A DNA stretch of 42,910 nt from an uncultured Candidatus Binatia bacterium (GTDB lineage Bacteria > Desulfobacterota > Binatia > HRBIN30). Location of the stretch: positions 1 to 42,910 of the forward strand of contig CAZGSN010000369.1 in the NCBI GenBank assembly GCA_964528465.1. Direction: 5' to 3'. Below, piece after piece: positions 7,882-40,610 of this stretch (within the stretch, counting starts at the first letter, position 1; each line of letters begins with the position of its first letter). The notes beneath the pieces are model-generated. The model did not search any database. It saw nothing but the letters and a program-made list of their open reading frames with translations, and was not told where the DNA came from. Position numbers and translations under genes: made by a program.

Positions 7882-10789
<2,908 letters not shown>

Positions 10790-11740: not shown

Positions 11741-11770
11741 TTGATGTTTGCCCCCTCCGCGGCGAGCAGT

Positions 11771-11890
11771 CGGGGGGCGCTATCGGAGTCGGCATCGATC
11801 CCGTTGCACGCGGTGTCTGCCAACCCACGTCGCGGCCGATTCCGACAGCGATCCCAATCTGGTTGCAGGGTTGTGCAGAGGTTCCTTAGC
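11771..11890 (+). repeat. Copy A of a ~120-nt intergenic repeat family (family 2)
   Basis: GCTATCGGAGTCGGCATCGATCCCGTTGCACGCGGTGTCTGCCAACC..CGCGGCCGATTCCGAC..ATCTGGTTGCAGGG..GCAGAGGTTCCTTA. It aligns by eye with 28645-28765 (same strand) and 26611-26722 (reverse strand). Confidence 0.6.
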
Positions 11891-11895
11891 GAGTG

Positions 11896-13857
11896 TCAGG
11901 GTTCGTGGAGATCCATGGCTGTAGCAAGGCGATCCCCACCGGGTTGAATCGGCTCTGTCTCCGACCAGTAGACCAAGCGCCTTTCCTTCTCAGGCTCCAC
12001 CACCCAAATCTCAGCGCGCAAATCGCCGAGTTCCTGCATGGAGAGGCGCAGCTCGGAACCTGGCGCGACGGGAAACGCAGTGGCAGTGCCCGGCTTGGCG
12101 ACTTTGCGGACGCCATCGATAGTGGCCGCCAAATCCCCCGGCCCGGGCGCTGTTACCTCGATCGTCGCCGGAGCACCGACCCAGCGGGCGTCCCAGTGGA
12201 ATATGCGCTGCTTGGGCTCCGGGCAGGGAGTCGTGTCGCGAAAGGTGTAGGCGTGGAATGAAGTTGGCACGATGCCGGAGTCGACCAGGTCGTCGTCACA
12301 GTGAATGGTGTAATGCCAACCGTGCTTGCGCTCACCCCATACCCCAGCCGGCAGATAAGCGCGGAAGCAGTAGCCGTAGTCGACGATGTTTCCGGCCCCG
12401 ACTAGATCGAGGTAAAAAGACAGCGGGGCTTTGGCGATGCACACGACATGATAAACGTCGTCGCGCATGAGATTGCTGAGCATGAGCGGTCGTACGCGAT
12501 CCGAACCCAGATCGAGTCGTCGAGGTTCCGCAAAAGCACGCATGTCGGTGTAGAAGATGGGCTTGTCGCTTGGGAAGTCGCGAGCGACTCTTGTTCGCAC
12601 CGGGTCGTACCACTGGGCCATCTCCTGTTGGTAAGTACCAAAATACAGTCCCAGAGCTTGATACGCAGCAACGGTGAGCGTTCCCACGGCCAGAAAAAGA
12701 TGCGCGCGCGGAAACCGTCGGAACAAGTCGAGCCCGAGCGCCGCGGCAACCGGAAGGATGGCATACGCCAGAGTCAGGCGATGCGTGCTGGTTCCTTCGC
12801 CGTAGCCGAAGACAGCCGGTGTAAGGCCAGCCACCAAGACGGCAGCCATGAATAGGCTCGCACGCAGTCCGCTCCACAAACCCCCAATGGCGAGGAGCAA
12901 GACAACCACAGGGTGCATTCCGCCGCTTGCCGTGCTGAGCCAATGGCTATTCCCGGTTGCGGCCCAGGTGCTGCTCAATGCAGCGTCGAATCGCAGCACG
13001 AGCGGCCAGTAGCGATCCTGCGTGGCGTCCGTCGCCTCAGTGGCGAGGGCTCCGAACCACTTCAAACCTGTCCAACGAAGCTCGTTCTCGCTCAGGAACA
13101 AAGGCAACGCCCCCGCAAAGCCGAGGGCCAAGACGAGGAGACACGCCGCCCGGTTCCGCCATCCGCGAGCGAGAACGAAGGCGACAAGCGGCACCAGTGT
13201 CATCGAACGGGAGGAGAAGTACGTATAGAAGCCCAGGCAACACACCACCGCCCCGATCCACAGATCGACGGGCCTCACCTGCCGCCAAATCGCCGTGGCG
13301 AGGACAGTCAACAGAAGGAGCTGATTCAACAACAGCTCGCCACCTTGATAAAGGCGAGCGTGGAAGATGTTGCCGGGAATGATCGCCAGGATCGCTGCCC
13401 CCCACAGCCCGGCGACGACAGTGCCACCCATGATGCGGATCAGCGCGAAGATAACGGCGAGCGAGGCGGCTGTTCCTAGGAACGAGTAGGCGCGGATTGC
13501 GACCACGCCGGGACCGAACACATGCACCAAAGGCAACTCGAAGAGCATGTGGATCAAGCTCGGCAGCTTGTTGCAGTTGTCGTCGAACAGCCGGCCGGCC
13601 TCGTAGTCGTCCGCCGAACACTCCAGCGTCAGCCCCTCGTCTGCATGCAGTGGGGGGAAGTCGTAGGCCCATAGCGCAGACGCAAGCGACACCACCAACA
13701 GCAGGACAAGAAGCACAGAATGTGATTCGTTGCGCAGCAGCCGCCACAAAGCCACGATGTAGGTAAGAATAATCGCAAGCGACAGCAACAGAACGTACGG
13801 GGGTGGATAGCTGAGCACGAGGCGGCGAGAGATAGCACTACAGCGGCGGGGGCGCAT
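11896..13857 (-). CDS. Polytopic membrane protein, GT-C-fold (ArnT/PMT-like) glycosyltransferase candidate with a ~200-aa soluble C-terminal domain
   Basis: 653 aa with about 12 hydrophobic segments. An early loop PLHADEG resembles the acidic first-loop motif of GT-C enzymes. The C-terminus is hydrophilic and beta-rich. The function is inferred only. Confidence 0.5.
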   Translation of the reverse strand: MRPRRCSAISRRLVLSYPPPYVLLLSLAIILTYIVALWRLLRNESHSVLLVLLLVVSLASALWAYDFPPLHADEGLTLECSADDYEAGRLFDDNCNKLPSLIHMLFELPLVHVFGPGVVAIRAYSFLGTAASLAVIFALIRIMGGTVVAGLWGAAILAIIPGNIFHARLYQGGELLLNQLLLLTVLATAIWRQVRPVDLWIGAVVCCLGFYTYFSSRSMTLVPLVAFVLARGWRNRAACLLVLALGFAGALPLFLSENELRWTGLKWFGALATEATDATQDRYWPLVLRFDAALSSTWAATGNSHWLSTASGGMHPVVVLLLAIGGLWSGLRASLFMAAVLVAGLTPAVFGYGEGTSTHRLTLAYAILPVAAALGLDLFRRFPRAHLFLAVGTLTVAAYQALGLYFGTYQQEMAQWYDPVRTRVARDFPSDKPIFYTDMRAFAEPRRLDLGSDRVRPLMLSNLMRDDVYHVVCIAKAPLSFYLDLVGAGNIVDYGYCFRAYLPAGVWGERKHGWHYTIHCDDDLVDSGIVPTSFHAYTFRDTTPCPEPKQRIFHWDARWVGAPATIEVTAPGPGDLAATIDGVRKVAKPGTATAFPVAPGSELRLSMQELGDLRAEIWVVEPEKERRLVYWSETEPIQPGGDRLATAMDLHEP

Positions 13858-14039
13858 TCAAAACGAACCGCAGCCATCGTCGCCGGTCGCCCGTCGGACC
13901 TTGCCAAGCCGACGGCGAAGTCTGCTGGAAAACTTGCGAATGAATCCTGCGAGCCTTCAGCGAGGTGGCAATCTGTCGGCGGCTTGCAGCATGCAGCCCG
14001 CTAGCGGTCGAGTCCGTGCTTTGCGACGATGGGCGTTGC

Positions 14040-14675: not shown

Positions 14676-14748
14676 CCTCAAGCCCGGTAGGAATGGAAGC
14701 GGCGCGCGGCGCGGCGCTGACCTTCGAAAAGAGAGCCCTGTCGACGTT

Positions 14749-15180
14749 CTACGAGGCTAGAGGGTTCTCCCAACCCAGGGGCTTGAAGCGAGCGAAGTCG
14801 CCATCGCTACTGCACAAGATGAGCCCATGGCCAACCGCAATCGCGGCGAGATGGGCGTCGGCAACCAGCTTGGAGGAGCTGGCATTGCCGGCAAGAAACG
14901 ACTCGAGTAGCTCCTGGTGTCGGTCGCTCGGCTCCGGTACCCAAACGTTGTCGAGTGCAAGCCAGATTGCGACCCGATCCCATGCCTCTTTCATCGAGAG
15001 GGGCCTTGGAAATACCCTTGGGTTCGTGCAGATGCGCAGAAACGCGAGAAGCGAAGGCCACGGCATTCCAACTCGGATGGACGCGTTGAGCCGCCCGTCG
15101 AGCCAGGCGTTTGCCGCCTGGTGCTGTGCAAAGTCAGAAACAGTCGCGTAGAGGAGAAGATTCGCATCGATCAGGATCAC
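14749..15180 (-). CDS. vapC: PIN-domain toxin VapC
   Basis: The GTG start at 15180 (VILIDANLLLYA) overlaps the vapB stop (GTGA). The acidic PIN residues are at D5, ADAHLAAIA and SSDGDF. Confidence 0.85.
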   Translation of the reverse strand: MILIDANLLLYATVSDFAQHQAANAWLDGRLNASIRVGMPWPSLLAFLRICTNPRVFPRPLSMKEAWDRVAIWLALDNVWVPEPSDRHQELLESFLAGNASSSKLVADAHLAAIAVGHGLILCSSDGDFARFKPLGWENPLAS

Positions 15181-15428
15181 CGGTGGTCCTCGCCTTCCGC
15201 AAAGGCCAGCACCTCGGAGATGTCGTCCAGATTGCTGAGGCGAGGCTTGCCAAGTGATACGGGGGTGGTTGCGTGTGGCGTCGAACCGCGCGTCCGCCTC
15301 CGGCGCATGCTCGTCAGCCCCGCCCGCAAGACCGCGTTCAGCGTCTGCTTGAAAGATTCGGTCCGCCCCTTCCGTACCTTGTTGAGTTCCGCAACTACGT
15401 CGTCTTCGAGGGTAATGGTGGTTCTCAT
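15177..15428 (-). CDS. vapB: VapB-family antitoxin
   Basis: 83 aa starting MRTTITLEDDVVAELNK, a typical VapB_antitoxin N-terminus. This is only the C-terminal part of the 373-aa track ORF; the rest is antisense to the SNF2 gene. Confidence 0.7.
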   Translation of the reverse strand: MRTTITLEDDVVAELNKVRKGRTESFKQTLNAVLRAGLTSMRRRRTRGSTPHATTPVSLGKPRLSNLDDISEVLAFAEGEDHR

Positions 15429-15435
15429 GCATCGC

Positions 15436-15464
15436 CGCATATGTCTCTGATGATTTGATGTCAA
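15436..15464 (-). promoter_or_regulatory. sigma70-like promoter for vapBC, possibly giving a leaderless mRNA
   Basis: The reverse strand reads TTGACA, 17 nt, TATGCG, then 7 nt (GCGATGC) to the vapB ATG at 15428. Confidence 0.3.
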
Positions 15465-15713
15465 TTCCAGGGAGATGCGCCCGGATGCCTGTCGCGGGAG
15501 CCCGTTACCATCCAGAGAATCCAGAGCCGTACAACTACTCCACCGGCACCATAACCAGAGGCTGGTTGGCAAGGGCACGCTACTGGCGCAGCTCCGGCAC
15601 TCGCCCGTGATCTGCGGTTGCTTGGTTTGCTGGTACGGGTGTGTCGTTGTCCTTCGCTTCTCTGTGCGAACAGCGTTGCTTGGCCGCGTGCACTCAGGCA
15701 CGTTGCACGGTTC

Positions 15714-28644: not shown

Positions 28645-28765
28645 TTGCGGAGTCGGGAGTCGCTATCGGAGTCGGTATTGATCCCATTGCACGCTGTGTC
28701 TCCCAACCTGTGCCGCGGCCGATTCCGATCCGTTTGCAAGCCTACTTGTGCAAAGGCTCGTAAGC
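28645..28765 (+). repeat. Copy B of repeat family 2
   Basis: GCTATCGGAGTCGGTATTGATCCCATTGCACGCTGTGTCTCCCAACC..CGCGGCCGATTCCGATCCGTTTGCAAG..TGTGCAAAGGCTCGTAAGC. Same orientation as copy A and inverted relative to copy C. Confidence 0.55.
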
Positions 28766-28794
28766 TGAGGCCGGGCTCAATGACGATCGTCAGT

Positions 28795-28841
28795 CTTTGT
28801 CCTGGACAAAGGTTGACACCGCATCGAGGCAGGCGTATAGG
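28795..28841 (+). promoter_or_regulatory. Palindromic operator plus sigma70-like promoter of the carH-like operon
   Basis: CTTTGTCC-T-GGACAAAG (28795-28811, perfect 8-1-8 palindrome) sits directly upstream of TTGACA (28813-18). A 17-nt spacer leads to TATAGG (28836-41). The ATG at 28849 is only 7 nt past the -10 box. Confidence 0.4.
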
Positions 28842-28848
28842 GGGCGGC

Positions 28849-29841
28849 ATGGTCGCGAACCGGGCTCCCGTGGCAAGGGCAATCGCCCCACACGACGCCT
28901 ACCCCGTACGTTTGGTAGCCAAGCTGACGGGCTTATCCGCCGACATCATCCGGGCTTGGGAGAAACGGTACGCCGTCGTCGAGCCGGTGCGTGGGCCGCG
29001 TGGCGCCCGTCTCTATTCGACCTCCGATATCGATCGCCTGCGGGCGTTGGCCGCGGCGGTAGCCACGGGGCGTTCGATCGGTGATGTAGCGCATCTTGGA
29101 AGTGCGGAACTCCTCGCTCTCGCTCCAGCTCCGGTCCCTGCTCAGGTAGCTCCGGCGCGCCATAGGGCCGGTAGCAATCGTGTCGTCACCGCTACGTTGG
29201 CGTGTCTGCGCGCCCATGACGTTGTTGGAATTGAAATACACCTTGCCGATGCCCTGGTTGCTCTGGGCAGCCAGATATTCCTGCACGAAGTGGTGGTGCC
29301 GCTGCTGCACGAAGTCGGGGATGGTTGGGCGCGCGGCGAGCTGTCCATCGCCCAAGAGCACTTGCTCTCCGGGATTCTCCGCAATCTTCTCAGCGGAATG
29401 CTGCGCTCGCGTCCCCGAGCCCCACAGTCGAGCCTCTTGCTTGCTACACCACCGGGAGAGCGCCACGAGTTTGGTCTCCTGCTCGCCGCGCTGGTGGCGA
29501 GCGACCAAGGGGTCGGCAGCAACTACATCGGCATCGACCTTCCGGCCGCGGAAATCGTCGATGCAGCGTTACGTTCCTCGTGCTCGGTGGTTGCGATCAG
29601 CGCCGTGGCTCCGGACAACCGGCGCAACGCCGTAGCCACGGTGCGTGAGTTGGAAGCCCGGCTACCGGCCCTTGTGGAGTTGTGGATTGGTGGTGCCGAC
29701 GCCCCTAGCGTGCACCGCCAGGCCCATAGCCGGCGGGCGCGTCTGATCACCGACCTGAATGACCTCATGGGTTACCTCGAGCGCCTTGTACCCAAGACAA
29801 CACAACCGCATCGCCAAGCGATGCCAAAGGAAATGGAGTGA
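28849..29841 (+). CDS. carH: MerR-family, B12-binding light-responsive regulator (CarH/LitR type)
   Basis: N-terminal MerR HTH (VRLVAKLTGLSADIIRAWEKRY). W-x9-EH motif (WARGELSIAQEH) of the four-helix bundle. Rossmann B12 motif GERHEFG (E/D-x-H-x-x-G). The internal ATG at 28849 is preferred, because the track extension translates repeat copy B. Confidence 0.85.
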   Translation: MVANRAPVARAIAPHDAYPVRLVAKLTGLSADIIRAWEKRYAVVEPVRGPRGARLYSTSDIDRLRALAAAVATGRSIGDVAHLGSAELLALAPAPVPAQVAPARHRAGSNRVVTATLACLRAHDVVGIEIHLADALVALGSQIFLHEVVVPLLHEVGDGWARGELSIAQEHLLSGILRNLLSGMLRSRPRAPQSSLLLATPPGERHEFGLLLAALVASDQGVGSNYIGIDLPAAEIVDAALRSSCSVVAISAVAPDNRRNAVATVRELEARLPALVELWIGGADAPSVHRQAHSRRARLITDLNDLMGYLERLVPKTTQPHRQAMPKEME

Positions 29842-29844
29842 TCC

Positions 29845-30207
29845 ATGGCGTCTTGTTTGATGAACTCGGATGTGGCCGTGATCTCGCACCTACTGGCGGG
29901 TGGAGAAATCGTTGCGGCACAGCTTCCCACGCCATCGCAATGGAGCGCAGAGAAGAAGCTTGCGGCTGCGGTCCTGGCCGGGGCACTGGTGGAAGTGCGG
30001 GATCGCCACGATCAGCCGCACTATGATCGGCGCATCCAAGAAGACCTCAAGTGGATATATTCCGACGATGCGACCTGGCCTTTTTCCTTCGTGCGCTTGT
30101 GTCAACTCTTTGGCCTCGAACCCGAGTATGTGCGCGTCGTGGTCCAACGTTGGATGGCCGGCACCACGTGTCCACGACAAGTGTCGCTCCACCGTCACGC
30201 AGCGTGA
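29845..30207 (+). CDS. Hypothetical 120-aa cytoplasmic protein, no recognisable domain
   Basis: It starts 4 nt after the carH stop, with a GGAG RBS 7 nt upstream. G/C-biased third codon positions fit this frame better than the two alternative ORFs. Notable segments are WSAEKKLAAAVLAGAL and WPFSFVRLCQLFGLEPEYVR. Confidence 0.55.
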   Translation: MASCLMNSDVAVISHLLAGGEIVAAQLPTPSQWSAEKKLAAAVLAGALVEVRDRHDQPHYDRRIQEDLKWIYSDDATWPFSFVRLCQLFGLEPEYVRVVVQRWMAGTTCPRQVSLHRHAA

Positions 30208-30216
30208 GCTAGAGCT

Positions 30217-31584
30217 ATGAGAGTCCTAATAACCGGCGCGACCGGCTTTGTCGGTCGGCCCTTGGTGCACCGACTCCTGGAACGAGGCCATGAAGTGGTC
30301 GTTCTCAGCCGCGACGCCAGCCGGGCCATGACCAGCCTACCGGTACGTTGCGAGTGTCGCACCTGGGACCCGGAGTCCGGCCGCATCAGCGCCGGCGCTG
30401 TTCAGGGCTGCAATGCGATCGTGCATTTGGCGGGTGAAGGGGTGGCAGACAAGTCTTGGAGCCCCGAGCGCAAGAAGGAAATCCTGGACTCGCGTGTCCA
30501 ATCCACGCGTGCCTTGCTCTCTGCCCTGCGCGCCCTGCCCCCCTCATCGCGGCCACAGGCCTTGGTGGCGGCCTCGGCCATTGGTTTCTACGGGGATCGC
30601 GGTGACGAAGAGTTGGACGAGACCTCGCTAGCCGGCGCGGGCTTCCTCGCGGATGTCTGCAAAGCATGGGAAACGGAAAGCCGCGGTGCGGAAGAGCTCG
30701 GCTTGCGCACGGCCATCGTTCGTATTGGCATCGTTCTCGGCAAAGACGGCGGGGCTCTGTCCAAAATGCTGCCACCGTTTCAGCTCGGCGTCGGCGGTCG
30801 CCTCGGCGATGGCAAGGCGTGGATGAGCTGGATCCACATCCAAGACCTCGTCGATCTTTTCGTACACGCTGTCGAGAACCAAGAGATCAACGGGGTAGTC
30901 AATGGCGTCGCACCGCAACCGCTAACCAACGCGGCCTTCACCAAATCTCTAGGCCGAGCCTTGCATCGCCCGACGTTGCTTCCCGTGCCGCGATTGGCGC
31001 TACAAGCAGTGCTTGGCGAGATGGCGTCGCTTCTATTCGCCAGTCAGCGTGTGTTTCCGCGCATGGCGCAGCGATCCAGTTTCCAGTTCCGTTATGCGGA
31101 CATTGACCAGGCCCTGGCCTCCCTGGTGGATGGCGAGCACGAGATCCTTGCGGAACAGTGGGTGCGACGCCCGCTTCCCGAGGTGTTCGCCTTCTTCTCC
31201 AACGCTCACAATCTGGAACAACTGACACCTGCCTTCCTGAAGTTTCGAGTGCTCGGCACCAGCACCCCCGCCCTTCAGGAGGGCACGCTCATCGACTACA
31301 AGCTGTCGCTGCACGGTATCCCGATGAAATGGCAGAGTCGCATAGAGGTATGGCAACCCGGAAAGCAGTTCGTCGACACACAAGTCCGCGGCCCTTACCA
31401 ACTGTGGCATCACACCCACGAGTTTGAAGAGTACCAAGACGGCACCATCCTTCGCGATCGCGTCCGCTACCGCATGCCCTTGGGCGGGTTTGGCGATGCC
31501 TTGGCCACACCTCTGGTGCAACGCGACTTGAAGACAATCTTCGATTTCCGGCGCCAGCGCGCGCAGGAGCTGTTTGGCGCATGA
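30217..31584 (+). CDS. Fusion of a YfcH-type (TIGR01777-like, DUF1731) atypical SDR/epimerase and a C-terminal SRPBCC (cyclase/dehydrase-like) ligand-binding domain
   Basis: ITGATGFVGRPL, HLAGEGVADKSWSPERKKEILDSRV, and the DUF1731-like tail PVPRLALQAVLGEMA. A ~150-aa SRPBCC-like region follows (YKLSLHGIPMKWQSRIEVWQPGKQFVDTQVRGPYQLWHHTHEF). Confidence 0.82.
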   Translation: MRVLITGATGFVGRPLVHRLLERGHEVVVLSRDASRAMTSLPVRCECRTWDPESGRISAGAVQGCNAIVHLAGEGVADKSWSPERKKEILDSRVQSTRALLSALRALPPSSRPQALVAASAIGFYGDRGDEELDETSLAGAGFLADVCKAWETESRGAEELGLRTAIVRIGIVLGKDGGALSKMLPPFQLGVGGRLGDGKAWMSWIHIQDLVDLFVHAVENQEINGVVNGVAPQPLTNAAFTKSLGRALHRPTLLPVPRLALQAVLGEMASLLFASQRVFPRMAQRSSFQFRYADIDQALASLVDGEHEILAEQWVRRPLPEVFAFFSNAHNLEQLTPAFLKFRVLGTSTPALQEGTLIDYKLSLHGIPMKWQSRIEVWQPGKQFVDTQVRGPYQLWHHTHEFEEYQDGTILRDRVRYRMPLGGFGDALATPLVQRDLKTIFDFRRQRAQELFGA

Positions 31585-32228
31585 GCCGGGGCGACAGAAA
31601 GACAGAGAAAAGCATGCCGCAACCTTTCGAGACGAGCACTGCAAGCGGAGCCAGAGGCACAAGACGCCCTTCTGTAGCTGTTGGCAGCCTGGCCGCAGCG
31701 CTGCTGCTGCTAGTCAACACGGCAAGGGCCTCGACGATCGAAGGCGTACAATTTGCCGACACCTTGCGTCAGGATGGCGTGCCAATGCGCGTCCACTGCC
31801 TCGGGCTGCTGCGCTACATGGTGCTCATCAAAGGCTACGTGGCTGCCCTCTATCTTGGGGAAGGCGCCTCTGTCGCTGATGTGTTGCAGGACGTGCCCAA
31901 GCGGCTCGAACTCAACTACTTCTATGCCATCAAGGGCAGCGACTTCGGCAAGGCTGCCGACCACATCCTCGCAAACAACCTGGGGACAGAAGCCTTGCAG
32001 CGCTTGCGCTCGCGTCTCGATCGCCTGCACGCACTCTACGAAGACGTGCAGCCGGGCAGCCGCTACTCACTCACCTACATCCCAGGAAAGGGCACCGAGC
32101 TAGCGCTGGACAATGTCCGCAAAGGCACCATTGAAGGTGCCGACTTTGCCGCTGCCTACTTCTCGATTTGGCTTGGCGACAAGCCGATCGACACGAGCTT
32201 ACGCGATCAGCTTCTACGTTGCTCCTGA
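31581..32228 (+). CDS. Chalcone-isomerase-like (fatty-acid-binding-type) exported protein
   Basis: ATGA overlap with the upstream gene. The N-terminal signal contains RRPSVAVGSLAAALLLLVNTARA. The body is LLRYMVLIKGYVAALYL..RLELNYFYAI..FAAAYFSIWLG, as I remember the Chalcone_3 family. Confidence 0.7.
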   Translation: MSRGDRKTEKSMPQPFETSTASGARGTRRPSVAVGSLAAALLLLVNTARASTIEGVQFADTLRQDGVPMRVHCLGLLRYMVLIKGYVAALYLGEGASVADVLQDVPKRLELNYFYAIKGSDFGKAADHILANNLGTEALQRLRSRLDRLHALYEDVQPGSRYSLTYIPGKGTELALDNVRKGTIEGADFAAAYFSIWLGDKPIDTSLRDQLLRCS

Positions 32229-32244
32229 CCGCTAGGCCATCGCC

Positions 32245-32808
32245 GTGCGACTCATTCCGCTACTGAGCAACTATTTCGCCTTCTATGCCGGTTGGCTTGC
32301 CTGTGTATTCGGGGCCGCGTGGGGGCAACCGCTGTTGGGCACGGCAGTTGCGGCAGCTTGCATCCTCCTGCACGTAGCGTGCTCCGCGGATCGCGGTCGT
32401 GAGATGGCCTTGGTGATAACCGTTGGCGGCTTGGGCTTTCTTGTCGACACAGCCCAAGCGTTGGGAGGCGTCCTCCAGTTTGGCAGCAGTGGGATCTCCG
32501 CCTGGCTGTGTCCGCCATGGCTCGTGGCAATCTGGATGCTGTTTGCCACCACTCTGAACGGCTCCATGCAATGGCTCGCCGGCCGCTACTTGCTGGCCGC
32601 CGCACTCGGCGCCGTGTGCGGCCCCCTCTCCTACATCTACGGAGCCCGTCTCGGCGCTCTGACGGCCGTCTCCGACAACGCGATCGGAGTACTCGCGGTA
32701 GTTTGGGCCATCCTCATGCCGGCGCTGCTCGTTCTCAATTCCCGCTTTGGCGGCGGGCAATCCAACATGGCGAGCCGCCCAGATCAGCGTCTGGCGGCAA
32801 GCTCCTGA
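32245..32808 (+). CDS. DUF2878-like small membrane protein
   Basis: GTG start. The N-terminus NYFAFYAGWLACVFGAAWGQPLLG and 4-5 TM segments match my memory of DUF2878. Confidence 0.55.
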   Translation: MRLIPLLSNYFAFYAGWLACVFGAAWGQPLLGTAVAAACILLHVACSADRGREMALVITVGGLGFLVDTAQALGGVLQFGSSGISAWLCPPWLVAIWMLFATTLNGSMQWLAGRYLLAAALGAVCGPLSYIYGARLGALTAVSDNAIGVLAVVWAILMPALLVLNSRFGGGQSNMASRPDQRLAASS

Positions 32809-34952
32809 AGAAAGCGGTCGACGCGCGCCACCGCCTCGCCCATGGAGGCCCTACTGAGGGGGGCGGTACCGCGCATCGGCCGCATGGCCCGACCGCGTGT
32901 CCGCGTCGCTTCCAAATACTCGCTAAACAAAAGGAGGCCTTCCTGATTCTCGTTGAGCCTGCGGGGTCCGCGGCCTCCACGGACTGTAGCCGCGCGCGTG
33001 CGACTGACGGATAGCGCACTTGGAATATCGCGGCGGGGGTTGCCGGTACGACGAATCGCTGAGCCGATACTCTGCGCCGCGGCCGTGCGATTGCCGAGTG
33101 GACCCAGCCCCCACTTGTCGATAGCGTACCGAAGGATGCTGGTGTGGTCGAACGGCGTCGACGATACGTTGGCGTCGACCCAGGGCGATACGAGGACAGC
33201 CGGGACACGCACGCCGAATCGCTTGAAGTCGTACTCGTAGGTGTACTGGTCGGGAGGAACCGCCGCCGGTGGGGCTACGTGATCGTAGAAACCACCGTGC
33301 TCATCGTAGGTCACGACCAAGAGAGTCGAGCGGAACAACTCCTCGTTCTTGCGCAAGGTGTTGTACACGCTGGCAATCAGACGTTGCCCTCGCATCACGT
33401 CGTGCGGTGGATGGTCGTCATTGGCGTCTTCGCCCATGTAGCTTGGCTCGATGAACACAAACGCTGGAAACTCAGCGGCTGGGCCCGCTGCATCTTTCGT
33501 AAAGTTCGAGAAGCGCGAATAGCGCCAAGCGTTGCTCGGCTTGAGCTGATGGGTGAGCAGCAACGAGTGGGGAATATCGCCGTAGTAGATCCGCCAGGGA
33601 ATGTCCTTTTCATTCAGGCGATCGTAGATGGTGTCTTGGTTGTAGAGATGCAAGTTGGGCTCGAAGACACCTTTGGGCATCTCGACACGGCCGAGTGAAG
33701 TGCCGCTGTGGGCGAAGAAGCGATTCGTCCACGTAGGCCCAGGTACCGACGAGTACCAGCGATCACACACCGTGAAGCTTGTGGCCAGCGTATGCAGTGC
33801 CGGCAGCGCGCCTGCGGCATGGTAATTCATGATCAGCTCGCGCTGGAGACGCGCAGACTTTGGATAGGTTAATGCGTAGTCGAGGACGAAGTAGGCATTG
33901 GGACCACCTAGTTGCAGCTTCACATTGCTCGCCTCGTGCATGGGATCGGGCATCGATAACGACGCCTGCATGTGCGGTGGGGTTAGTACCCGCTGCTCGA
34001 ACGGCGGGCCGGCTTGGACGAAATTACGGCGCGGTGGCTGGCTTGGGTCGATACCATCCATCGCAATGCCTTTAGCTGCGAAGTGCGGCTGCAATGCACC
34101 AAGGCTGTGATCGAAAGATCGGTTCTCCAGCATGAGAACGACGATGTGCTCAATAGGGTCACCGTCAGCGCGCAACGCCCTGGTGGGTCTAGGTGCGGGC
34201 TTGACGCCACGTGAACGTCGTCCGCGTGTAGCGGTGGTCGGCGAGATGCTCTCTTCAGGGCTTACCGGCGCCGACTTCGTTACCCCCGCTTGTAGCTTCT
34301 TGCGAACCTTTGCTGCCGCTTCGGCCTTGGTGATCAGACCGTTGAGGTCGGCATCTAGACCTGCATTCTGCGTGTACGCCTTCGTGCCCTGACGAAACAA
34401 CACGTAGTCGTTCGGCTTGCCGATCGCCTTCGGCCACAGCACCGCCATGTACGTGTCTTCCAGGGTCTGCAGTTTGCCACGGTAGGAGCTGAGGTAGGCC
34501 TCAACGAAGTTGAGCTGCTCTTCGGCTGTCATCGCCGCCAGAGCAGAAAGGGAGGTGCCGAGAGAAGCCGCGGTGCTCGGCATGAACTGAATCAGCCCGG
34601 TAGCCCCACTGTGCTTGTTCTTGATCGACGGGCTGAAGGATTCGCCGCTCTCGAAAGCCATTACCGCCATGAGGTAGTTGGGGTCGACGCCTAGCCGCGT
34701 GGCCAGCGCAACAACCTTGCGACGAAACGTCAGGCTGACCACGGCGCCAAAGATAAGCTCGACACTACCGTGGGGTGGGGGCAGGGCCGACGATCCGCCG
34801 CCCGCACCGTGCGGAATATCGATTTGCTGCCCCATCGAAATCTGATTCGGATTGCTGATCTGCGGGTTCTCGGCCAACAGATCGGCCAAGGTGATGTGAA
34901 AGCGCTTGGCAATCGCCGAGAGGCTATCGCCCTTCTTCACTGTGTACTTCAT
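32784..34952 (-). CDS. Three-domain fusion: LysM, lysozyme-like/lytic-transglycosylase-like domain, and phosphoesterase (phospholipase C / AcpA family)
   Basis: LysM domain YTVKKGDSLSAIAKRFHITLADLLAENP...GQQIDIP. Lysozyme-like domain MAFESGESFSP..SGATGLIQFMPSTAASLG. Basic Pro/Arg linker. PLC family motifs IEHIVVLMLENRSFDHSLG, TYDEHGGFYDHVAPP and GVRVPAVLVSPW. No N-terminal signal peptide. Confidence 0.85.
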   Translation of the reverse strand: MKYTVKKGDSLSAIAKRFHITLADLLAENPQISNPNQISMGQQIDIPHGAGGGSSALPPPHGSVELIFGAVVSLTFRRKVVALATRLGVDPNYLMAVMAFESGESFSPSIKNKHSGATGLIQFMPSTAASLGTSLSALAAMTAEEQLNFVEAYLSSYRGKLQTLEDTYMAVLWPKAIGKPNDYVLFRQGTKAYTQNAGLDADLNGLITKAEAAAKVRKKLQAGVTKSAPVSPEESISPTTATRGRRSRGVKPAPRPTRALRADGDPIEHIVVLMLENRSFDHSLGALQPHFAAKGIAMDGIDPSQPPRRNFVQAGPPFEQRVLTPPHMQASLSMPDPMHEASNVKLQLGGPNAYFVLDYALTYPKSARLQRELIMNYHAAGALPALHTLATSFTVCDRWYSSVPGPTWTNRFFAHSGTSLGRVEMPKGVFEPNLHLYNQDTIYDRLNEKDIPWRIYYGDIPHSLLLTHQLKPSNAWRYSRFSNFTKDAAGPAAEFPAFVFIEPSYMGEDANDDHPPHDVMRGQRLIASVYNTLRKNEELFRSTLLVVTYDEHGGFYDHVAPPAAVPPDQYTYEYDFKRFGVRVPAVLVSPWVDANVSSTPFDHTSILRYAIDKWGLGPLGNRTAAAQSIGSAIRRTGNPRRDIPSALSVSRTRAATVRGGRGPRRLNENQEGLLLFSEYLEATRTRGRAMRPMRGTAPLSRASMGEAVARVDRFLQELAARR

Positions 34953-35044
34953 GGTCCCTCCCCAAGCCGCCTCAGTAGTTGCGCACGTTGCCGCGTTAGC
35001 CGTGTCGAGGCGACCACGCGGCTAGCGTCTACGAAGTCTGGTCG

Positions 35045-35866
35045 TCAGATGGTGAACGGGATCTGGCGCTCGAACCCAGCGTCGGCCATCCCGGTGCGGA
35101 AAAGATTCGGGCTTTGCCAAGGTGGCATGAGACGTTGAATGTCGCGGTGAAATTTGGCGTAGCTTCCCTTGAAGGCGCCACTCTTCCACACGGTCTTTAG
35201 TGTGCCGGTAAACAAACCGTTGCTGTCGCCATCGGACGAGAGCTGGTTGTCCTGGCAGCCGGAAATCAGCAGCACGCTGGCACCCACGGCGACGCGCTCT
35301 CCCGACGGATGGGCAGCTTGGATGCCGTCGTACAGCTTCTTGTTGCGGTTGTAAGTTCGCGTCTCGATCTCTTTCGGCATGGCGCGAAAGCGTGGCTCGC
35401 CGGCGGCGCTTGGTGCGATGCTGCGATACACCGCACCCCGCGCCTGGCTGCCACTGTGGCAGCTATCGGACACCATGCAGATACGCACGCCGCGCTCGAA
35501 CCTCCCCCACAGGGCGTACAACTCGTCGTCGACAAGTTCGCGATCAAAAAGCACGCAGGTTTCGTCCAGTCCATCTTCTCGTTCATCGCCGTTGCGATCT
35601 GGCACCTGACCACCATGCCCGGCGTACGTCAGCAAGAAGATATCACCGGAGCGCAGTTGCTTCGCGGCGGTAGTGATCGCATCGATCACTTTCTTCGATG
35701 TGGCTTGCTTGGTCAGAAGCCGGGTCGGCTTGAAACCGCACCTCTTGGCGATCGCCATCATGTCGTTGGCGTCACTCTCGCATGCGACCAAGGCTCCGTC
35801 CCAGCCGTCGTAGTGTTTCGGGTCGACACGATTCAACCCGATGTGCAACGATATCCCTTTGGCCAT
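35045..35866 (-). CDS. Peptidase C14 caspase-like protease (orthocaspase), stand-alone 273 aa
   Basis: The catalytic His is in LLTYAGHGG and the catalytic Cys in MVSDSCHSGS. The ATG at 35866 (MAKGISLHIGLN) has an AAGGGGGA RBS. Confidence 0.85.
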   Translation of the reverse strand: MAKGISLHIGLNRVDPKHYDGWDGALVACESDANDMMAIAKRCGFKPTRLLTKQATSKKVIDAITTAAKQLRSGDIFLLTYAGHGGQVPDRNGDEREDGLDETCVLFDRELVDDELYALWGRFERGVRICMVSDSCHSGSQARGAVYRSIAPSAAGEPRFRAMPKEIETRTYNRNKKLYDGIQAAHPSGERVAVGASVLLISGCQDNQLSSDGDSNGLFTGTLKTVWKSGAFKGSYAKFHRDIQRLMPPWQSPNLFRTGMADAGFERQIPFTI

Positions 35867-36158
35867 TGGCTCCCCCTTTCCTAGTAGCGCACCGGCGCCA
35901 TACACGGGGCTTGTCTGTACCCACCCACAACTGCGAACTGAGAAGCTGTCTATTGCAACTTGCCTGCCGATGTCAAATGGCTTGAACGCTTAGCAAGTAC
36001 CTGGTGCGCCAGTTCGCCGACAGAGTTTCCGAATCTGGCCGCTCGTGCTTCCGAGGAAACCCACCGGGTTCCAAAATCGTCGCACCTGCCAGACGAATGG
36101 CGGCCTTAGCGCCGTACAGACGCGGCATATGGCGCCACAAAGCTCGGAAGCTTCCCAC

Positions 36159-38486
36159 TCAGAACAGTGACAACTGCGCTGACGGTGTGGCGATGGCGGC
36201 AAAGCTCTTGCCGAGAAACCGTAGGATAGCGTCGGCGACGGGAGCGATTTGGTGCTGGATGTAGTGCTCGTAGTCCGGCCTTGCCGTGAGGTTGTCGAGC
36301 GGTTCTGGTCCGTTGTGCGTGACGATGTAGGCAACGATGCGCCCGCCCGGCTGCGGCTGCTTGCGCGCGGCTTTGACGTGAGCCGGCGTGGTTTTGGTGT
36401 AGGCTCGCAGATCCTTACGTACCGCCTTCTTGTAAACCAGTTGCGCGTCGAAACGGCCGGCGCGTAGGTCGCGCACAAAGTCGTGGATGAACTCATCGAC
36501 AGGCTCGTCATGGAAGACTCGCTGCAGCAAGCCGTGCTGGAATTGCTTGCTCACCTCGCTCCAATCGCGACGCACCGACTCTAGCCCGACGAACTCGATT
36601 TCCTCGCGCCCGGCTTTGACGAGCAAGCCGGCGTAGCGCTTCTTGCTGCCGGTCCGGCCGCTACGCACCTCGGGAAGAAAGAAGCGTTGGTAGAGCTTCT
36701 CGAATTCGAGTTCGAGAACGCTGTCGCAGTCGAACTCGCGGCGAATCATGCGGGCGACATCCGCCCCGATCTCCTCCGCGAGCCGCTCGCCTAAGGCAAG
36801 CGCGGCGTCTGCCTCACCCACCTGCGACAGGAGAAACAGCGAGTCGGTATCGCCGTACAGCACCTCGAAGCCACGTTGGCGCGCAAAGTCCGCCGTCTGC
36901 TGGATCAGGTATTGGCCAAAGCTGGTGATGGCATTGGCGACATCCGGAGAGAACAATCGCGACGCAGCGGCGCCAAGCACACCGTAGAACGAGTTCATCA
37001 AGATCTTGATGGCGTTGGCCTTGACCGTGTTGCCGAGGTACTTGGCTTGCTGGCGCTCGTCGGCCAACTGCGTCAGCAGTTGCGGCAGGATGCCGGGGCG
37101 ATCACGTCGAAAGCAGGCGCCGTTGGGCGCCCGGATAGCCCCGGCTTCCGGCTTGGCCGACAGCGTGAGCGGGTCCAAGTTGAAGGTGCGGATGATACTC
37201 GGATACAGGCTCTTGAAATCGAAGACGAGAACGTTCTCGTAAAGCCCGGGCTTCGAATCCATTACGTAGCCACCACCGAGATGCACAGTCGGCACTTGGG
37301 AATGCACCGACGGAGCAACGAAGCCGCGGTGGCGCAGGCTGCTCAGGTACAACGAATCGACGGAGGCGATGGCCGCGCCGACGCGATCGAGCTGCATACC
37401 GGTCAGCAGGCTGCGCTCCACAGCCAAGTCGACGAGGCCAACCTTGTCCAAGATCTCGAGCACCAGCCTGGCGTCTTGCAGGTTGTAGTCGATGAGATGC
37501 TGCGGATTGCTGCGATAGAGTTCGTCGATCTGCTCGGCCCGGTGGTCGCCGGCGAGAAGCTTCCCCTTGCCCAAGAAGGTGCGTGCCGCTGTTTCCAGCT
37601 TGTAATCGTCGAGACGTAGGAAGGCGCCGCGCAACATGGCGAGGCCGTCGAGCACCTGCCGTCCACATACGACGGCTCGTGACTCACGCGTGAAGGAAGC
37701 ATCCTTGCGCAAGTCGAGTACATCGTCGCTACGTCCGATGGCGAAACGCAATCCATAGCGCTGAGCGATGCGGGCCAGGCAAGCAAGATCGAAGTCGACG
37801 ACGTTCCAGCCGGTGATCACGTCGGGATTGATTGCCTGCACGTACTCCAGGAAGCGGCGAATGGCCGCCTTTTCGGAAGATACACGATCAGCGTGCTCGA
37901 AGTGGTCTTGATGCACGAGGATGGCCCGCTCGAAATCCGCCGTGCACAGGGCAATGGAATACAGATGCTCGGCCTTGGGATCGATCTCGATGTCGATCGA
38001 CAACACCTTCAGGTGCGGCACCCAGTGACACGGGCGCAAGACCGGATTGCGATACACGCGCCCCAGTCGTGCATGGGAGTGCGATGCCCCCTCGACCTCG
38101 AAACCGCCACGGATGCCCAGATCGATCAAATAGCGATAGGCGAAGCGCAGGTCGGCTTCGAAACAGCTCACGCCGCGAGCCTCGATGTGCTGGCGTAGCC
38201 GCGGCGCGTGGGCAGGACTGCGGAGGATCACTCGCGACACCGGCGTGTCGTCCAGGCCGCGCAAATCCGTAGGCTCGATGGTGGCGTCGGCAACACGCGA
38301 ACGAATCTCGGCGACGCGAGCGGTAGGAACAAAGAAGTACGGGTGGAAGCGATCGTCGATGACGAGGCAAGGCTCGCCACCTTCGAGCACGCCGTAGAGG
38401 TGAACTTCCGGCACCCCGTCTACGATCCGGTATGTAGGGGTAAGTAGAAAACCGCGCTCACTCGGGCGAAAGGATTCGGTGGTCAC
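36159..38486 (-). CDS. polB: Family B DNA polymerase (Pol II type)
   Basis: Exo motifs LSIDIEI and NVVDFD. Pol motif A DFKSLYPSII, motif B KILMNSFYGVLG, motif C YGDTDSLF, and KKRYAG. Confidence 0.92.
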   Translation of the reverse strand: MTTESFRPSERGFLLTPTYRIVDGVPEVHLYGVLEGGEPCLVIDDRFHPYFFVPTARVAEIRSRVADATIEPTDLRGLDDTPVSRVILRSPAHAPRLRQHIEARGVSCFEADLRFAYRYLIDLGIRGGFEVEGASHSHARLGRVYRNPVLRPCHWVPHLKVLSIDIEIDPKAEHLYSIALCTADFERAILVHQDHFEHADRVSSEKAAIRRFLEYVQAINPDVITGWNVVDFDLACLARIAQRYGLRFAIGRSDDVLDLRKDASFTRESRAVVCGRQVLDGLAMLRGAFLRLDDYKLETAARTFLGKGKLLAGDHRAEQIDELYRSNPQHLIDYNLQDARLVLEILDKVGLVDLAVERSLLTGMQLDRVGAAIASVDSLYLSSLRHRGFVAPSVHSQVPTVHLGGGYVMDSKPGLYENVLVFDFKSLYPSIIRTFNLDPLTLSAKPEAGAIRAPNGACFRRDRPGILPQLLTQLADERQQAKYLGNTVKANAIKILMNSFYGVLGAAASRLFSPDVANAITSFGQYLIQQTADFARQRGFEVLYGDTDSLFLLSQVGEADAALALGERLAEEIGADVARMIRREFDCDSVLELEFEKLYQRFFLPEVRSGRTGSKKRYAGLLVKAGREEIEFVGLESVRRDWSEVSKQFQHGLLQRVFHDEPVDEFIHDFVRDLRAGRFDAQLVYKKAVRKDLRAYTKTTPAHVKAARKQPQPGGRIVAYIVTHNGPEPLDNLTARPDYEHYIQHQIAPVADAILRFLGKSFAAIATPSAQLSLF

Positions 38487-38513
38487 GGTTACCAGGGTGG
38501 CTCACCCACCCAG

Positions 38514-40610
38514 CTAGGTGTTCGTGGAGGTGGGTAGGATATCGCGCAGGATCGGGGATGGGGTGGCCACGCTGGTAAGCCACAGTTGGTGCACGGCACG
38601 GGTTGCCCCCACATGCAACAAACGCCGCGCCGTCGGCGTATCGGGGAAGCTCGCGGCGCTGACCTCGACGAGCACAACGTAATCGAACTCCAGGCCCTTC
38701 ACCTGCTCCATTTCCGTAACTTCGATTCCAGGGGCAAAGGTGAAATCCTGATTCTCGACCCGACGCAGTTTGTCCACCTCGCAGTTGCTGAGACCGCGAT
38801 GATAGAGCCCACTAAGTTCGCGTGACGGTGTCAGCAGCGCCACCGAGGCCATTGGCTCCTTGCGGGTCAGCTCCTTCAAGGCGTCGGCAAGAAAGGCAAC
38901 GCAAGCGCCGTGGTCGGTAAAGCGAAAGAACTCCACCGGAGGCCCGGAGCGGGTGGTAACCGGCGGGGTCGAATCCTCACGCAGGTCCCCCAGCAAGGCC
39001 ACGGCGAATGTCGCGATCTCGTGTGAGCAGCGATAGCTGATGACGAGCGTGTCGACGGCTGTGCCCGCCAGACCCAGATTGGTGAAGAAGCTGGCCCACG
39101 AGGTAAAGCCGCCGTCCTTGACCACGTGCTGTTGGGTGTCGCCGGCGAGGGTGATGCTCTGGCGCTCGTCCAAGCAACCGAGCAGCACCTGCACTTCGAT
39201 AGGTGAAAAGTCTTGCACCTCGTCGATGGCGATGTGGCGATAGCGCAGCGGCCGCTGTGGAGCGGCGGGCAGTGGTCCCATACGCATCTGCCAAGCACGC
39301 AACAACAACGTGTCATCTTCGGGATCCAACTCCGCGTGCGACGACACGTCTCCTTCACTCCAAGCGACGACCTCGTGGCAACGTTCGCGATTCCAACTCG
39401 CGGCGCGCACCAACTCATCCGTGGTGAAGGCGTCTGGGGCTACCTGCGCGAAGACTTCTTCCAGCAAGGGCGCTTGGCTGAGCACGCTGGCCCAGTCGTC
39501 GATGACCTGCTCCACCGTCGGCAGGCCCGGGTTGCGGGCAATCTGCCGCTCCAGCGCGGCAATGAGACCCGAGTGCAGCTTCAAGCGATGCACGACGGCG
39601 GGCGGATTGTCGCGCATCTTGCGCGGCAACTTAGGGAAGAGGCGGCGAACCTGCTCGGCAGCCCACTCCTGAAAGGTGCGCACTTGCACCTTGTGCACAC
39701 CCAACGCCGGCAATACGTGGCTCACATAGTCGCGCAAAGCACGCGAGAACACCACCACGAGAGTCTGATTCGAATCGATTTGCGCATCATCGTAAGCCAG
39801 GTAGGCAATGCGGTGCAGGGCCACGGTGGTCTTGCCCGAGCCAGCGGTGCCGCGAATCACCACAAAACCGGCCGACGGGCGGGTAATGAGATCGAACTGT
39901 GTGGAGTCAATCAGGCCGGCGATGTCGGGAAGGTGCTTGTCCGAACGCTGGCTAGCGCCGCGGAGATCGGTGCCAAGGCGGCGATGATCCCCTTCACTTT
40001 CCGCATACGAACGCATGGCGGCACCTTCGCCACCCATGAGTTGCGGCGGCTGGCGCTGCAACTCGGCCCAACCATCGTCGGTAGTCTGATCGGCCCGAAA
40101 CAAACCCTCCGGGGCGTCGATGCGTTGTAGGCGGCGACTGCGAATGGTCACCGTACGGCGCGCCACCACTTCTCCGCTCAGAGTGCGGCCGGCGATCTCC
40201 TCTTCATATTCGTCACCCTGCTGATAGCGGTAGAAGATGCGCGAGATGGGCGCGTTGCGCCAATCGACGATGCGCACGCCGCGTTGCAGGCGAGTTGCCT
40301 TGCCGAGTAGGACGTCACGCTCGACGCCGTTTTCCTTCAGACGCAGGTGCGCAAAGTAGGGAGAATCCGGATTCACCTGCGGAGCTTGGCGCGCCGCGCG
40401 CAACTGCTCGAGCAAGGCCACTTGGCGGTTCCACTGCTGCAGCAAGGCGGGTTGGTCCTCGGTCTTGGCCCCCTGCATCATCTCCCGTAGGCGCGTCAGC
40501 TCCTCCACGAGCGAGGATTCCGACGGCGCCGATGAGGTCGGCGCTTCGGTCAGCAGCGTGTTCACCTGCTCCAGGAGAAGCAGCTCGTCTGCAACAATTG
40601 GATGTGGCAC
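38514..40610 (-). CDS. helD: UvrD-like SF1 helicase of the HelD / helicase IV type
   Basis: GTG start. N-terminal coiled region, then RIVDWRNAPISRIFY (HelD-type motif as I remember it). Walker A GTAGSGKTT, Walker B IAIDEVQD, and C-terminal GLEFDYVVL. Only 27 nt separate it from polB. Confidence 0.75.
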   Translation of the reverse strand: MPHPIVADELLLLEQVNTLLTEAPTSSAPSESSLVEELTRLREMMQGAKTEDQPALLQQWNRQVALLEQLRAARQAPQVNPDSPYFAHLRLKENGVERDVLLGKATRLQRGVRIVDWRNAPISRIFYRYQQGDEYEEEIAGRTLSGEVVARRTVTIRSRRLQRIDAPEGLFRADQTTDDGWAELQRQPPQLMGGEGAAMRSYAESEGDHRRLGTDLRGASQRSDKHLPDIAGLIDSTQFDLITRPSAGFVVIRGTAGSGKTTVALHRIAYLAYDDAQIDSNQTLVVVFSRALRDYVSHVLPALGVHKVQVRTFQEWAAEQVRRLFPKLPRKMRDNPPAVVHRLKLHSGLIAALERQIARNPGLPTVEQVIDDWASVLSQAPLLEEVFAQVAPDAFTTDELVRAASWNRERCHEVVAWSEGDVSSHAELDPEDDTLLLRAWQMRMGPLPAAPQRPLRYRHIAIDEVQDFSPIEVQVLLGCLDERQSITLAGDTQQHVVKDGGFTSWASFFTNLGLAGTAVDTLVISYRCSHEIATFAVALLGDLREDSTPPVTTRSGPPVEFFRFTDHGACVAFLADALKELTRKEPMASVALLTPSRELSGLYHRGLSNCEVDKLRRVENQDFTFAPGIEVTEMEQVKGLEFDYVVLVEVSAASFPDTPTARRLLHVGATRAVHQLWLTSVATPSPILRDILPTSTNT

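Follow-up and report, generated by a model that had tools for sequence, protein, structure and literature searches.

Introduction

Bacterial gasdermin operons, reportedly described by Johnson et al. in 2022, are protease–effector death modules. Adjacent α/β-hydrolase, MBL, Pepco and EACC1 effectors are activated by caspase-like proteases through site-specific cleavage, and the cuts that LcCaspase makes in its hydrolase follow Arg in R-G sites (Evans et al. 2025, PMC12642450). As early as 2012, metacaspases fused to Amidase_2 or lipase domains were pointed out as possible 'destructive weapons' (Asplund-Samuelsson et al., PMC3501461). Here we compare with these systems a pair of genes located on a stretch of 42,910 nt (ca. 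43 kb, called the window below) of contig CAZGSN010000369.1 from an uncultured Candidatus Binatia bacterium. The upstream gene encodes a small caspase-family protease and the downstream gene a protein in which a LysM domain and a lytic transglycosylase (LT) are fused to a phospholipase C (PLC); both are on the minus strand.

The LysM-LT-PLC architecture is unique and is new regardless of any part played by the caspase. For the two genes together we tentatively favor, while stopping short of calling it probable, a bicistronic protease-linked self-lysis module, which would belong to the known class of protease–effector death modules but with an effector that has not been described before. In the literature searched, no caspase is described whose partner combines LysM, lytic transglycosylase and PLC.

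Gene organization and the caspase-family protease

The elements of the gene pair, in the direction of transcription, are the following.

35871..35878, minus strand: Shine-Dalgarno-like AGGGGGA before the caspase ATG (direct sequence reading)
35045..35866, minus strand, stop included: caspase gene, 273 amino acids from the ATG (Pfam PF00656, PDB 3BIJ, dyad alignment)
34953..35044, minus strand: intergenic spacer of 92 nt, holding the RBS-like GGGGAGGG of the fusion gene at 34956-34963 (RBS, ribosome-binding site)
32784..34952, minus strand: whole fusion gene, 722 amino acids (list of open reading frames (ORFs) and Pfam)
34812..34946, minus strand: LysM peptidoglycan-binding domain, residues 3-47 (Pfam PF01476, E 7.4e-15)
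34278..34769, minus strand: GH23/SLT-like lytic transglycosylase core, residues 62-225 (Pfam SLT, PDB 9UDH)
34161..34277, minus strand: Pro/Arg-rich interdomain linker, residues 226-264 (composition, AlphaFold2)
32787..34160, minus strand: predicted NPC4-like non-specific phospholipase C, residues 265-722 (Pfam PF04185, PDB 8HAV, AlphaFold2)

The caspase gene adjoins the fusion gene on the same strand and lies upstream of it, so that protease and candidate effector are direct neighbors with no space for an additional gene between them. Purine-rich RBS-like motifs (AGGGGGA and GGGGAGGG) stand 4-5 nt 5' of the ATG in both genes. Neither the sequence nor a promoter/terminator scan revealed a terminator-like hairpin on the coding strand of the spacer; the same scan found no promoter-like site, and terminator-like sites were not commoner than in shuffled sequences. 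The GC content at third codon positions (GC3) is alike in the two genes (0.72-0.74) and matches that of the neighboring genes. A horizontal-transfer island was rejected since both GC and GC3 of the pair agree with the surroundings, and chance ORFs are excluded because homologue E-values reach 1e-190.

The sole Pfam domain of the caspase is Peptidase_C14 (PF00656, E 8.8e-22, 78 bits against a cutoff of 21.4). Its catalytic dyad, His84 (YAGHGG) and Cys136 (DSCHSG), is intact and invariant in an alignment of 29 homologues. The GCxxD-type pair Cys29/Asp32 is also conserved, and an Asp after the catalytic Cys, as in classical metacaspases, is not seen. A GTG at 35905 would lengthen the protein by 13 amino acids; because the homologues lack these residues and start at the same MAKGISLHIGLN, the ATG at 35866 is favored. 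Among solved structures the closest is that of GSU0716 from Geobacter sulfurreducens (PDB 3BIJ), which matches over the full length with an E-value of 7e-96; the next best matches are eukaryotic metacaspases. From these nearest characterized relatives, the caspase would be expected to cleave after Arg or Lys. The crystal structure of GSU0716 dates from 2007.

The GSU0716 family is large, with more than 7,400 cluster matches. Members that are 52-59% identical to the window protein occur in Planctomycetota, Verrucomicrobiota, Chloroflexota, Actinomycetota, Proteobacteria, Acidobacteriota and Bacteroidota, and one further contig in this identity range is labelled as an archaeon. Homologues with 47-56% identity are present in viral contigs of IMG/VR.

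The LysM and lytic transglycosylase module

The SLT domain (PF01464) is recognized at residues 84-136 of the fusion protein (E 1e-7, 31.8 bits, cutoff 21.3), and the lytic transglycosylase core of ca. 165 amino acids matches PDB 9UDH, annotated as 'lytic transglycosidase', with an E-value of 8e-46. Two motifs do not vary within the family: AFESGE, in which Glu101 is the putative catalytic residue, and GLIQFMP. Stand-alone LysM-LT proteins are 53-60% identical to the N-terminal 225 residues over ca. 228 amino acids, and relatives of the core were found in at least 580 IMG/VR contigs, the best 80 at 51-64% identity. Judged by its sequence relatives, the N-module is probably a signal-less endolysin-type enzyme of an abundant phage family, a family that normally requires a membrane breach to act. 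Since LysM begins at residue 3 and there is no start codon upstream in the stop-to-stop frame, a signal peptide appears to be absent, as judged by inspection; the homologues of either module, N-terminal or PLC, also start straight at their domains.

A wall-degrading protein of this kind might also be delivered to other cells. Signal-less peptidoglycan hydrolases and phospholipases are classic antibacterial activities of type VI secretion systems (T6SS), and the fusion protein, which has both, could be T6SS or other contact-dependent cargo that hits the peptidoglycan and membrane of a rival from the periplasm, the caspase being irrelevant or a co-delivered toxin. In locus L213 (2759-7647), genes for VgrG, PAAR, a DUF3990-like protein of 308 amino acids and a LysM-LT homologue without signal peptide (53% identity to the N-module over 240 amino acids) follow in succession, which points to T6SS delivery of some lysins of this family. 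Another LysM-LT homologue adjoins type III secretion/flagellar export genes. The window itself argues otherwise: in Pfam searches of its large ORFs, on which our statements about its gene content are based, VgrG, PAAR and Hcp were not found, and the position of a downstream immunity gene is taken by an overlapping gene of convergent orientation. T6SS genes were likewise found in none of the PLC-family loci examined, and we consider delivery of this kind improbable.

The abundance of the lytic transglycosylase core in viral contigs raises the further possibility that the pair is the remnant of a prophage or tailocin lysis cassette which has lost its holin and structural genes. The caspase homologues in IMG/VR contigs fit this, as does phage contig L108 (IMGVR_UViG_3300044712_001179, 4357-7523), where a membrane protein, an LT lysin, a lipoprotein, a caspase homologue of 272 amino acids, a small membrane protein and a DUF1353 protein are encoded in a row. 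The lysin of this contig is a stand-alone protein, 50% identical to the fusion core, and its gene lies two genes upstream of that for the caspase homologue. But the large ORFs of the window include no holin, spanin or phage structural genes, the GC3 of the pair is that of host genes, and viral contigs contain hardly any PLC relatives, one distant match having been found, so that a viral origin of the PLC was rejected. A phage remnant is the least probable of the explanations considered here. In viral contig L084, too, the caspase is flanked by a DUF1353 protein.

The phospholipase C module and the linker

The Phosphoesterase domain (PF04185) spans residues 267-616 with an E-value of 5e-67 and covers positions 1-355 of the 356 positions of the profile. 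The catalytic motifs ENRSFD, GPT407WTNR, DDHPPH and DEHGGFYDH, with Thr407 as the nucleophile, are invariant in the homologues. The nearest solved relative is NPC4 from Arabidopsis (PDB 8HAV, E 1e-49), which aligns to residues 265-681 including the C-terminal helical domain. An AlphaFold2 model of residues 215-722 has a pLDDT of 88 and a pTM of 0.89, and its top Foldseek match is 8HAW with a TM-score of 0.75-0.79. The C-terminal part is thus predicted to be a complete NPC4-like phospholipase C. Phospholipid as substrate is likewise a prediction, given for a family (PF04185) that also includes acid phosphatases (AcpA) and GPE phosphodiesterase and for a protein that scores 129 against a cutoff of 580 in the NCBIfam PC-PLC equivalog model.

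The linker contains seven Arg or Lys residues between positions 241 and 260, with Arg-Gly dipeptides at R243-G244 and R248-G249. It is predicted to be disordered: the pLDDT in the AlphaFold2 model is below 50 at residues 215-244 and 65-70 at residues 245-264.

A preliminary description of this DNA, made from its letters and ORFs, had noted two co-directional genes 92 nt apart, each with its own RBS, a bare 273-residue caspase with an intact dyad, and a 722-residue protein lacking a signal peptide and composed of LysM, a lytic transglycosylase, a basic linker and a complete PLC. All of this is borne out: gene spacing and RBS-like motifs are seen in the sequence, C14 is the only Pfam domain of the caspase and its dyad does not vary among the homologues, and Pfam, PDB matches and AlphaFold2 agree on the composition of the fusion protein, whose start appears to leave no place for an export signal.

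Fusions of PLC to wall hydrolases

Searches for a second protein joining LysM-LT to PLC gave none, neither among 5.8 billion clusters nor in an exhaustive scan of 1.84 billion representatives; in both, the best match of the fusion other than itself covers the PLC alone (663 bits). PADLOC gave nothing apart from a generic caspase model, either with the window proteins or with the partner proteins of other loci described below, so that a known defense system was rejected. The earlier statement that no system of this composition had been described therefore stands.

The PLC subfamily is signal-less throughout and is found in other fusions as well. In 11 of the top 120 matches the PLC carries an N-terminal Amidase_3 domain, all of these proteins being signal-less, and in P0420 it is followed by a C-terminal GH25 muramidase (PDB 1JFX, E 1e-26). 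Signal-less NPC-type PLC has thus been fused independently, on at least three occasions, to three types of wall hydrolase, Amidase_3, LysM-GH23 and GH25, which is a new observation.

Seven loci encoding Amidase_3-PLC proteins were examined (P0023, P0098, P0043, P0037, P0045, P0046 and P0054). P0043 has 1062 amino acids and consists of Amidase_3, PLC and a C-terminal domain of unknown kind. In its locus, L216 (ena:ERZ25039492:contig_60873, 7910-17205), the gene is directly followed on one strand by genes for a gasdermin, an α/β-hydrolase-C14 caspase and a C11/CHAT protease. P0037 and P0046 are encoded among toxin-antitoxin pairs and P0045 adjoins a recombinase; the loci of P0023, P0098 and P0054 contain no caspase. 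Since a signal-less wall hydrolase needs a breach of the membrane, the gasdermin can supply that breach in L216, and in the window the fused PLC could do so.

A further type of PLC fusion was seen in P0377, P0413, P0420, P0422, P0427, P0429 and P0449, which share a recurrent N-terminal domain of ca. 230 amino acids (MFQISVVNRS ... LSHEALEL ...) without sequence match in the PDB.

These fusions bear on a housekeeping function, in which the PLC would recycle phospholipid phosphate at the cytoplasmic face of the membrane and the LysM-LT part would be an appendage for envelope targeting or turnover, without cell death. The closest solved relative, NPC4, is a signal-less plant enzyme, said to be induced by phosphate starvation and to act at the plasma membrane, and stand-alone bacterial PLCs are widespread in ordinary contexts. 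Such a function is difficult to reconcile with the N-module, which belongs to a phage endolysin family and, as part of a cytoplasmic protein, has access to peptidoglycan only after a breach of the membrane. The independent Amidase_3 and GH25 fusions also point to wall destruction rather than metabolism, and we regard lipid housekeeping as very improbable.

Neighbors of the caspase family

The genomic neighborhood of the caspase family was surveyed in 80 species-level genome loci of at least 558 that matched. In about 28 of the 80, as tallied by hand, an adjacent co-directional gene encodes a protein of death-effector or protease type, usually downstream of the caspase. The gaps to these partner genes are mostly operon-like (-47 to 148 nt). 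The partners are the following.

Second caspase-domain protein, co-directional, downstream: 11 loci (56 downstream ORFs scanned)
Second caspase-domain protein, upstream: 4 loci (55 upstream ORFs scanned)
LCAT/PGAP1/DUF7379 lipase-like protein: 6 loci, 3 of them with CHAT
Papain-like protein: 3 loci
TIR protein: L057
CHAT protease: L064 and L008

The most informative partner is found in L006 (5995-9153; Thermoflexales metagenome-assembled genome (MAG), DAORUN010000025.1), where the gene for a minimal caspase is followed 75 nt downstream by a gasdermin gene and then by a gene for a C14-EAD7 caspase. The gasdermin matches PDB 7N51 with an E-value of 1e-38 and has the N-terminal Cys. L006 is a canonical, multi-protease gasdermin operon that uses the caspase family of the window. 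Loci with partners do not cluster in the caspase tree but are spread over it, and in this tree L006 is one of the nearest neighbors of the window protein. In the window, the lysin-PLC fusion fills the slot that is held by the gasdermin in L006.

Most of the second caspases bear a conserved N-terminal α/β-hydrolase of ca. 270 amino acids with an AHSLGS nucleophile elbow; in L043 an Amidase_2 domain takes its place. This α/β-hydrolase-caspase is the commonest partner of the minimal caspase, being full-length in L026, L033, L051, L055, L058, L059, L071, L074 and L080 and split in L025, and the same protein family is present in the gasdermin cluster of L216. Its N-terminal domain (LLCVHGVGH ... 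AHSLGS ... NHD) has no Pfam match and the caspase domain fused to it is of the active type.

The LCAT/PGAP1-like lipase proteins are encoded downstream of the minimal caspase in L011, L014, L048, L049, L053 and L066. They range from 460 to 1823 amino acids, some have DUF7379 and a C-terminal CHAT domain, and no PADLOC model covers them. In L057 (6869-8884) a TIR_2-domain protein of 672 amino acids is encoded 61 nt downstream of the minimal caspase, an arrangement that resembles type IV Thoeris (TIR and caspase). In L008 (6001-11906, from an Actinomycetes MAG) the minimal caspase is accompanied by an amidohydrolase, a signal-less PLC (32% identity) in convergent orientation and a CHAT protease of 393 amino acids. 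Amidohydrolases flank the caspase also in L012, L040 and L067.

Genomic context of the pair

Directly upstream of the caspase gene, on the same strand and separated by 292 nt, the minus strand encodes a UvrD-like helicase (698 amino acids) and a family-B DNA polymerase (PolB, 775 amino acids), 27 nt apart (36159-40610); the N-terminal ca. 240 amino acids of the helicase have no domain match. By eye, nothing convincing as an SOS/LexA-type palindrome was seen upstream of the caspase gene or of the helicase-PolB operon. On the other side, the 3' end of the fusion gene overlaps a convergent DUF2878 gene (32245..32808) by 25 nt. This gene closes a plus-strand row (28645-32808) encoding a CarH-like MerR/B12-binding regulator, a 120-residue ORF and SDR-DUF1731-SRPBCC, chalcone-isomerase-like and DUF2878 proteins, which looks like a light-responsive lipid-modification cluster. 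A P450 gene is also among the flanking genes, and the remainder of the window contains metabolic genes. Farther away, between 11896 and 15000, the AT-skew swings from +0.32 (13-14 kb) to -0.19 (14-15 kb) around a minus-strand ORF of 653 amino acids (11896..13857) without Pfam match.

A possible lysis mechanism and its weighing

As a self-lysis module, the pair could work in the following way. The fusion protein, endolysin-like and able to destroy the envelope, would remain latent in the cytoplasm for want of an export signal. Phage infection, stress from Ca2+ or at the envelope, or a protease acting upstream might be the trigger that activates the caspase. The NPC4-type PLC would then remove the head groups of inner-leaflet phospholipids and so breach the cytoplasmic membrane, and the lytic transglycosylase, targeted by LysM, would reach the peptidoglycan; the cell would lyse without a holin or gasdermin. 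The data show how the genes are ordered and spaced, which domains they encode, that the catalytic motifs are intact, that a signal peptide appears to be lacking, that the linker is predicted to be flexible, and in which contexts related genes occur. For the scheme we infer co-transcription of the genes, cleavage, the direction of regulation, the trigger, and a role in either abortive infection or altruistic lysis.

Licensing of the lysin-PLC by proteolytic cleavage is in our view doubtful, and alternatively the caspase may act in parallel as a promiscuous executioner. If cleavage occurs, the caspase might cut exposed Arg-rich flexible segments, namely the linker (226-264) or the loops 655-664 or 685-704. 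The fusion protein contains eight Arg-Gly dipeptides where four are expected (p ~0.04), and six of the eight fall within flexible stretches of low confidence (215-264, 655-664 and 685-704). As cleavage motifs these dipeptides give only a hint: their enrichment is marginal, and stand-alone PLCs do not conserve the sites.

In its widest form the mechanism would make the fusion protein a holin- and gasdermin-independent suicide effector which the caspase cleaves or with which it collaborates, as one case of a so far uncatalogued hub in which minimal GSU0716 caspases are wired to interchangeable lytic effectors: gasdermin, TIR proteins, α/β-hydrolase-caspases, wall-hydrolase-PLC fusions and LCAT-like lipases with CHAT. 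We consider this general form unlikely.

Several results weigh against a self-lysis module. A PLC was found in 1 of the 80 caspase-family loci, the convergent one on the opposite strand in L008, and a LysM domain in 1 of the 80. An unbiased survey anchored on the PLC, comprising 81 metagenome loci, gave no minimal caspase in a tblastn search with the window caspase; a hidden Markov model of long caspases found one, in L180, where the 3' end of an α/β-hydrolase-caspase gene lies 48 nt upstream of a signal-less PLC. By rough estimates some 0.1-0.9 such events are expected by chance in either survey, so that the counts are not clearly above chance. Both halves of the fusion commonly occur as stand-alone proteins with no caspase nearby, the gene contexts of the stand-alone PLCs being ordinary, and since about 65% of the caspase-family loci have unrelated neighbors, the caspase is not an obligate partner. 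Neither a caspase nor a PLC was found in the 80 best viral lysin loci, which makes the lysin-caspase arrangement of L108 an isolated case; a general link of the phage lysin family with caspases was rejected on this count. The window holds no sensor, holin or immunity gene and no defense or phage genes, the caspase has no sensor domain, and a phmmer search with two bacterial gasdermin seeds found no gasdermin among the ORFs of at least 50 amino acids. As to cleavage, the surplus of Arg-Gly is marginal, and P0002 and P0003, the closest PLCs of the stand-alone type, have a basic N-terminal stretch too, so that the stretch may be inherited rather than an evolved cleavage site. A cut in the C-terminal domain could even inactivate the enzyme, because NPC4 requires that domain for full activity.

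The idea of a conserved two-gene caspase-PLC system was dropped in view of these surveys. The preliminary description had made its proposal depend on the two families being conserved neighbors and, since they are not, its strict claim of a paired module fails; nor does the pair lie in a defense island, its neighbors being PolB, the UvrD-like helicase, the CarH-like cluster and P450. Of its proposal of a lytic effector coupled to a caspase, the general part retains support in the caspase family, with its varied lytic partners, and the exact pair is the part that is not conserved. The logic of caspase and lytic effector is still supported because of the loci in which the effector is swapped and the sister fusion encoded beside gasdermin, caspase and CHAT. 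Also in its favor are the local layout (co-directional genes, a short spacer free of terminator-like sites, equal GC3), the long caspase gene upstream of a PLC in L180, the caspase, PLC and CHAT of L008, the lysin and caspase of L108, the need of the endolysin family for a membrane breach, and the Arg-rich linker predicted to be disordered.

The same results allow the two genes to be coincidental neighbors, the fusion protein being an autonomous lytic enzyme and the caspase acting on unrelated substrates. In this case the fusion protein could be an autolysin for altruistic or explosive lysis with release of vesicles or DNA, or a predatory hydrolase that is freed on lysis. The pairing of caspase and PLC is not conserved in either direction, the caspase and both halves of the fusion mostly occur alone, and the chromosomal context is one of housekeeping genes with no inserted island visible in the composition. 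Against coincidence stand the operon-like spacing and order of the genes, the marked enrichment of lytic or protease partners at the same downstream position in the caspase family, and the recurrence of wall-hydrolase-PLC fusions beside gasdermin and caspase genes or in toxin-antitoxin-rich regions. We take it as a serious possibility without favoring it over the self-lysis module.

If the link between the genes is real, it adds an enzymatic effector that lyses the cell from within, an endolysin joined to a PLC, to the protease-licensed bacterial death effectors, which so far comprise pore-formers, nucleases and α/β-hydrolases. The widespread GSU0716/3BIJ caspase family, for which no role is known, would thereby gain a function. 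If it is not, the locus encodes an unusual lysin fusion next to an orphan protease. In addition, the fusions of PLC and wall hydrolases point to a class of dual wall-and-membrane lysins, which may be useful as enzybiotics.

Comparison with known systems

For each of the two proteins there is a structurally characterized relative. GSU0716 (3BIJ) is a full-length homologue of the window caspase, but it is a structural-genomics protein without assigned function that has been used only as a template for metacaspase modelling. NPC4 from Arabidopsis (8HAV/8HAW) shares with the fusion protein the phosphoesterase and C-terminal helical domains, the Thr nucleophile motif and the lack of a signal peptide; the window protein differs in being bacterial, in carrying the N-terminal lysin and in having only about 28-30% identity to the plant enzyme.

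As a system, the pair is closest to the gasdermin operons and the modules of Evans et al. (2025), in which the gene of a caspase-like protease adjoins that of a latent lytic or toxic effector. The caspase family of the window is encoded immediately upstream of a gasdermin in L006 and of lipase-like hydrolases elsewhere, and in the α/β-hydrolase module of Evans et al. Arg-directed cleavage is the documented licensing step. Unlike the effectors of these modules, that of the window is an endolysin-PLC fusion outside the described effector families, its protease has no fused or adjacent sensor, and no autoinhibitory segment was identified. The pair is moreover unique, rather than a conserved family, and lies outside defense islands.

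The Thoeris caspase and PCaspase are small caspase-like proteases that bring about abortive infection by promiscuous cleavage, strictly Arg-specific in the Thoeris enzyme and possibly after Arg in PCaspase. The family of the window caspase has a TIR neighbor in L057 and CHAT neighbors in several loci, whereas the window has no TIR, CRISPR or SAVED-CHAT activator; the comparison is one of function and gene context.

The holin-endolysin(-spanin) cassettes of phages and the LysA/LysB proteins of mycobacteriophages likewise combine a signal-less muralytic enzyme with lipid hydrolysis in order to dismantle a multilayer envelope. In contrast to these, the window has no holin, an NPC-type PLC takes the place of the cutinase-like esterase, both activities reside in one chain, the locus is chromosomal and not of phage type, and a caspase is the neighbor.

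Finally, the metacaspase-Amidase_2 and metacaspase-lipase fusions (PMC3501461) also combine protease, wall-hydrolase and lipase activities, and an Amidase_2-C14 protein directly adjoins the caspase family of the window in L043. In those proteins the activities are joined in cis, whereas in the window the caspase is a separate protein and the lipid enzyme is a phospholipase C.

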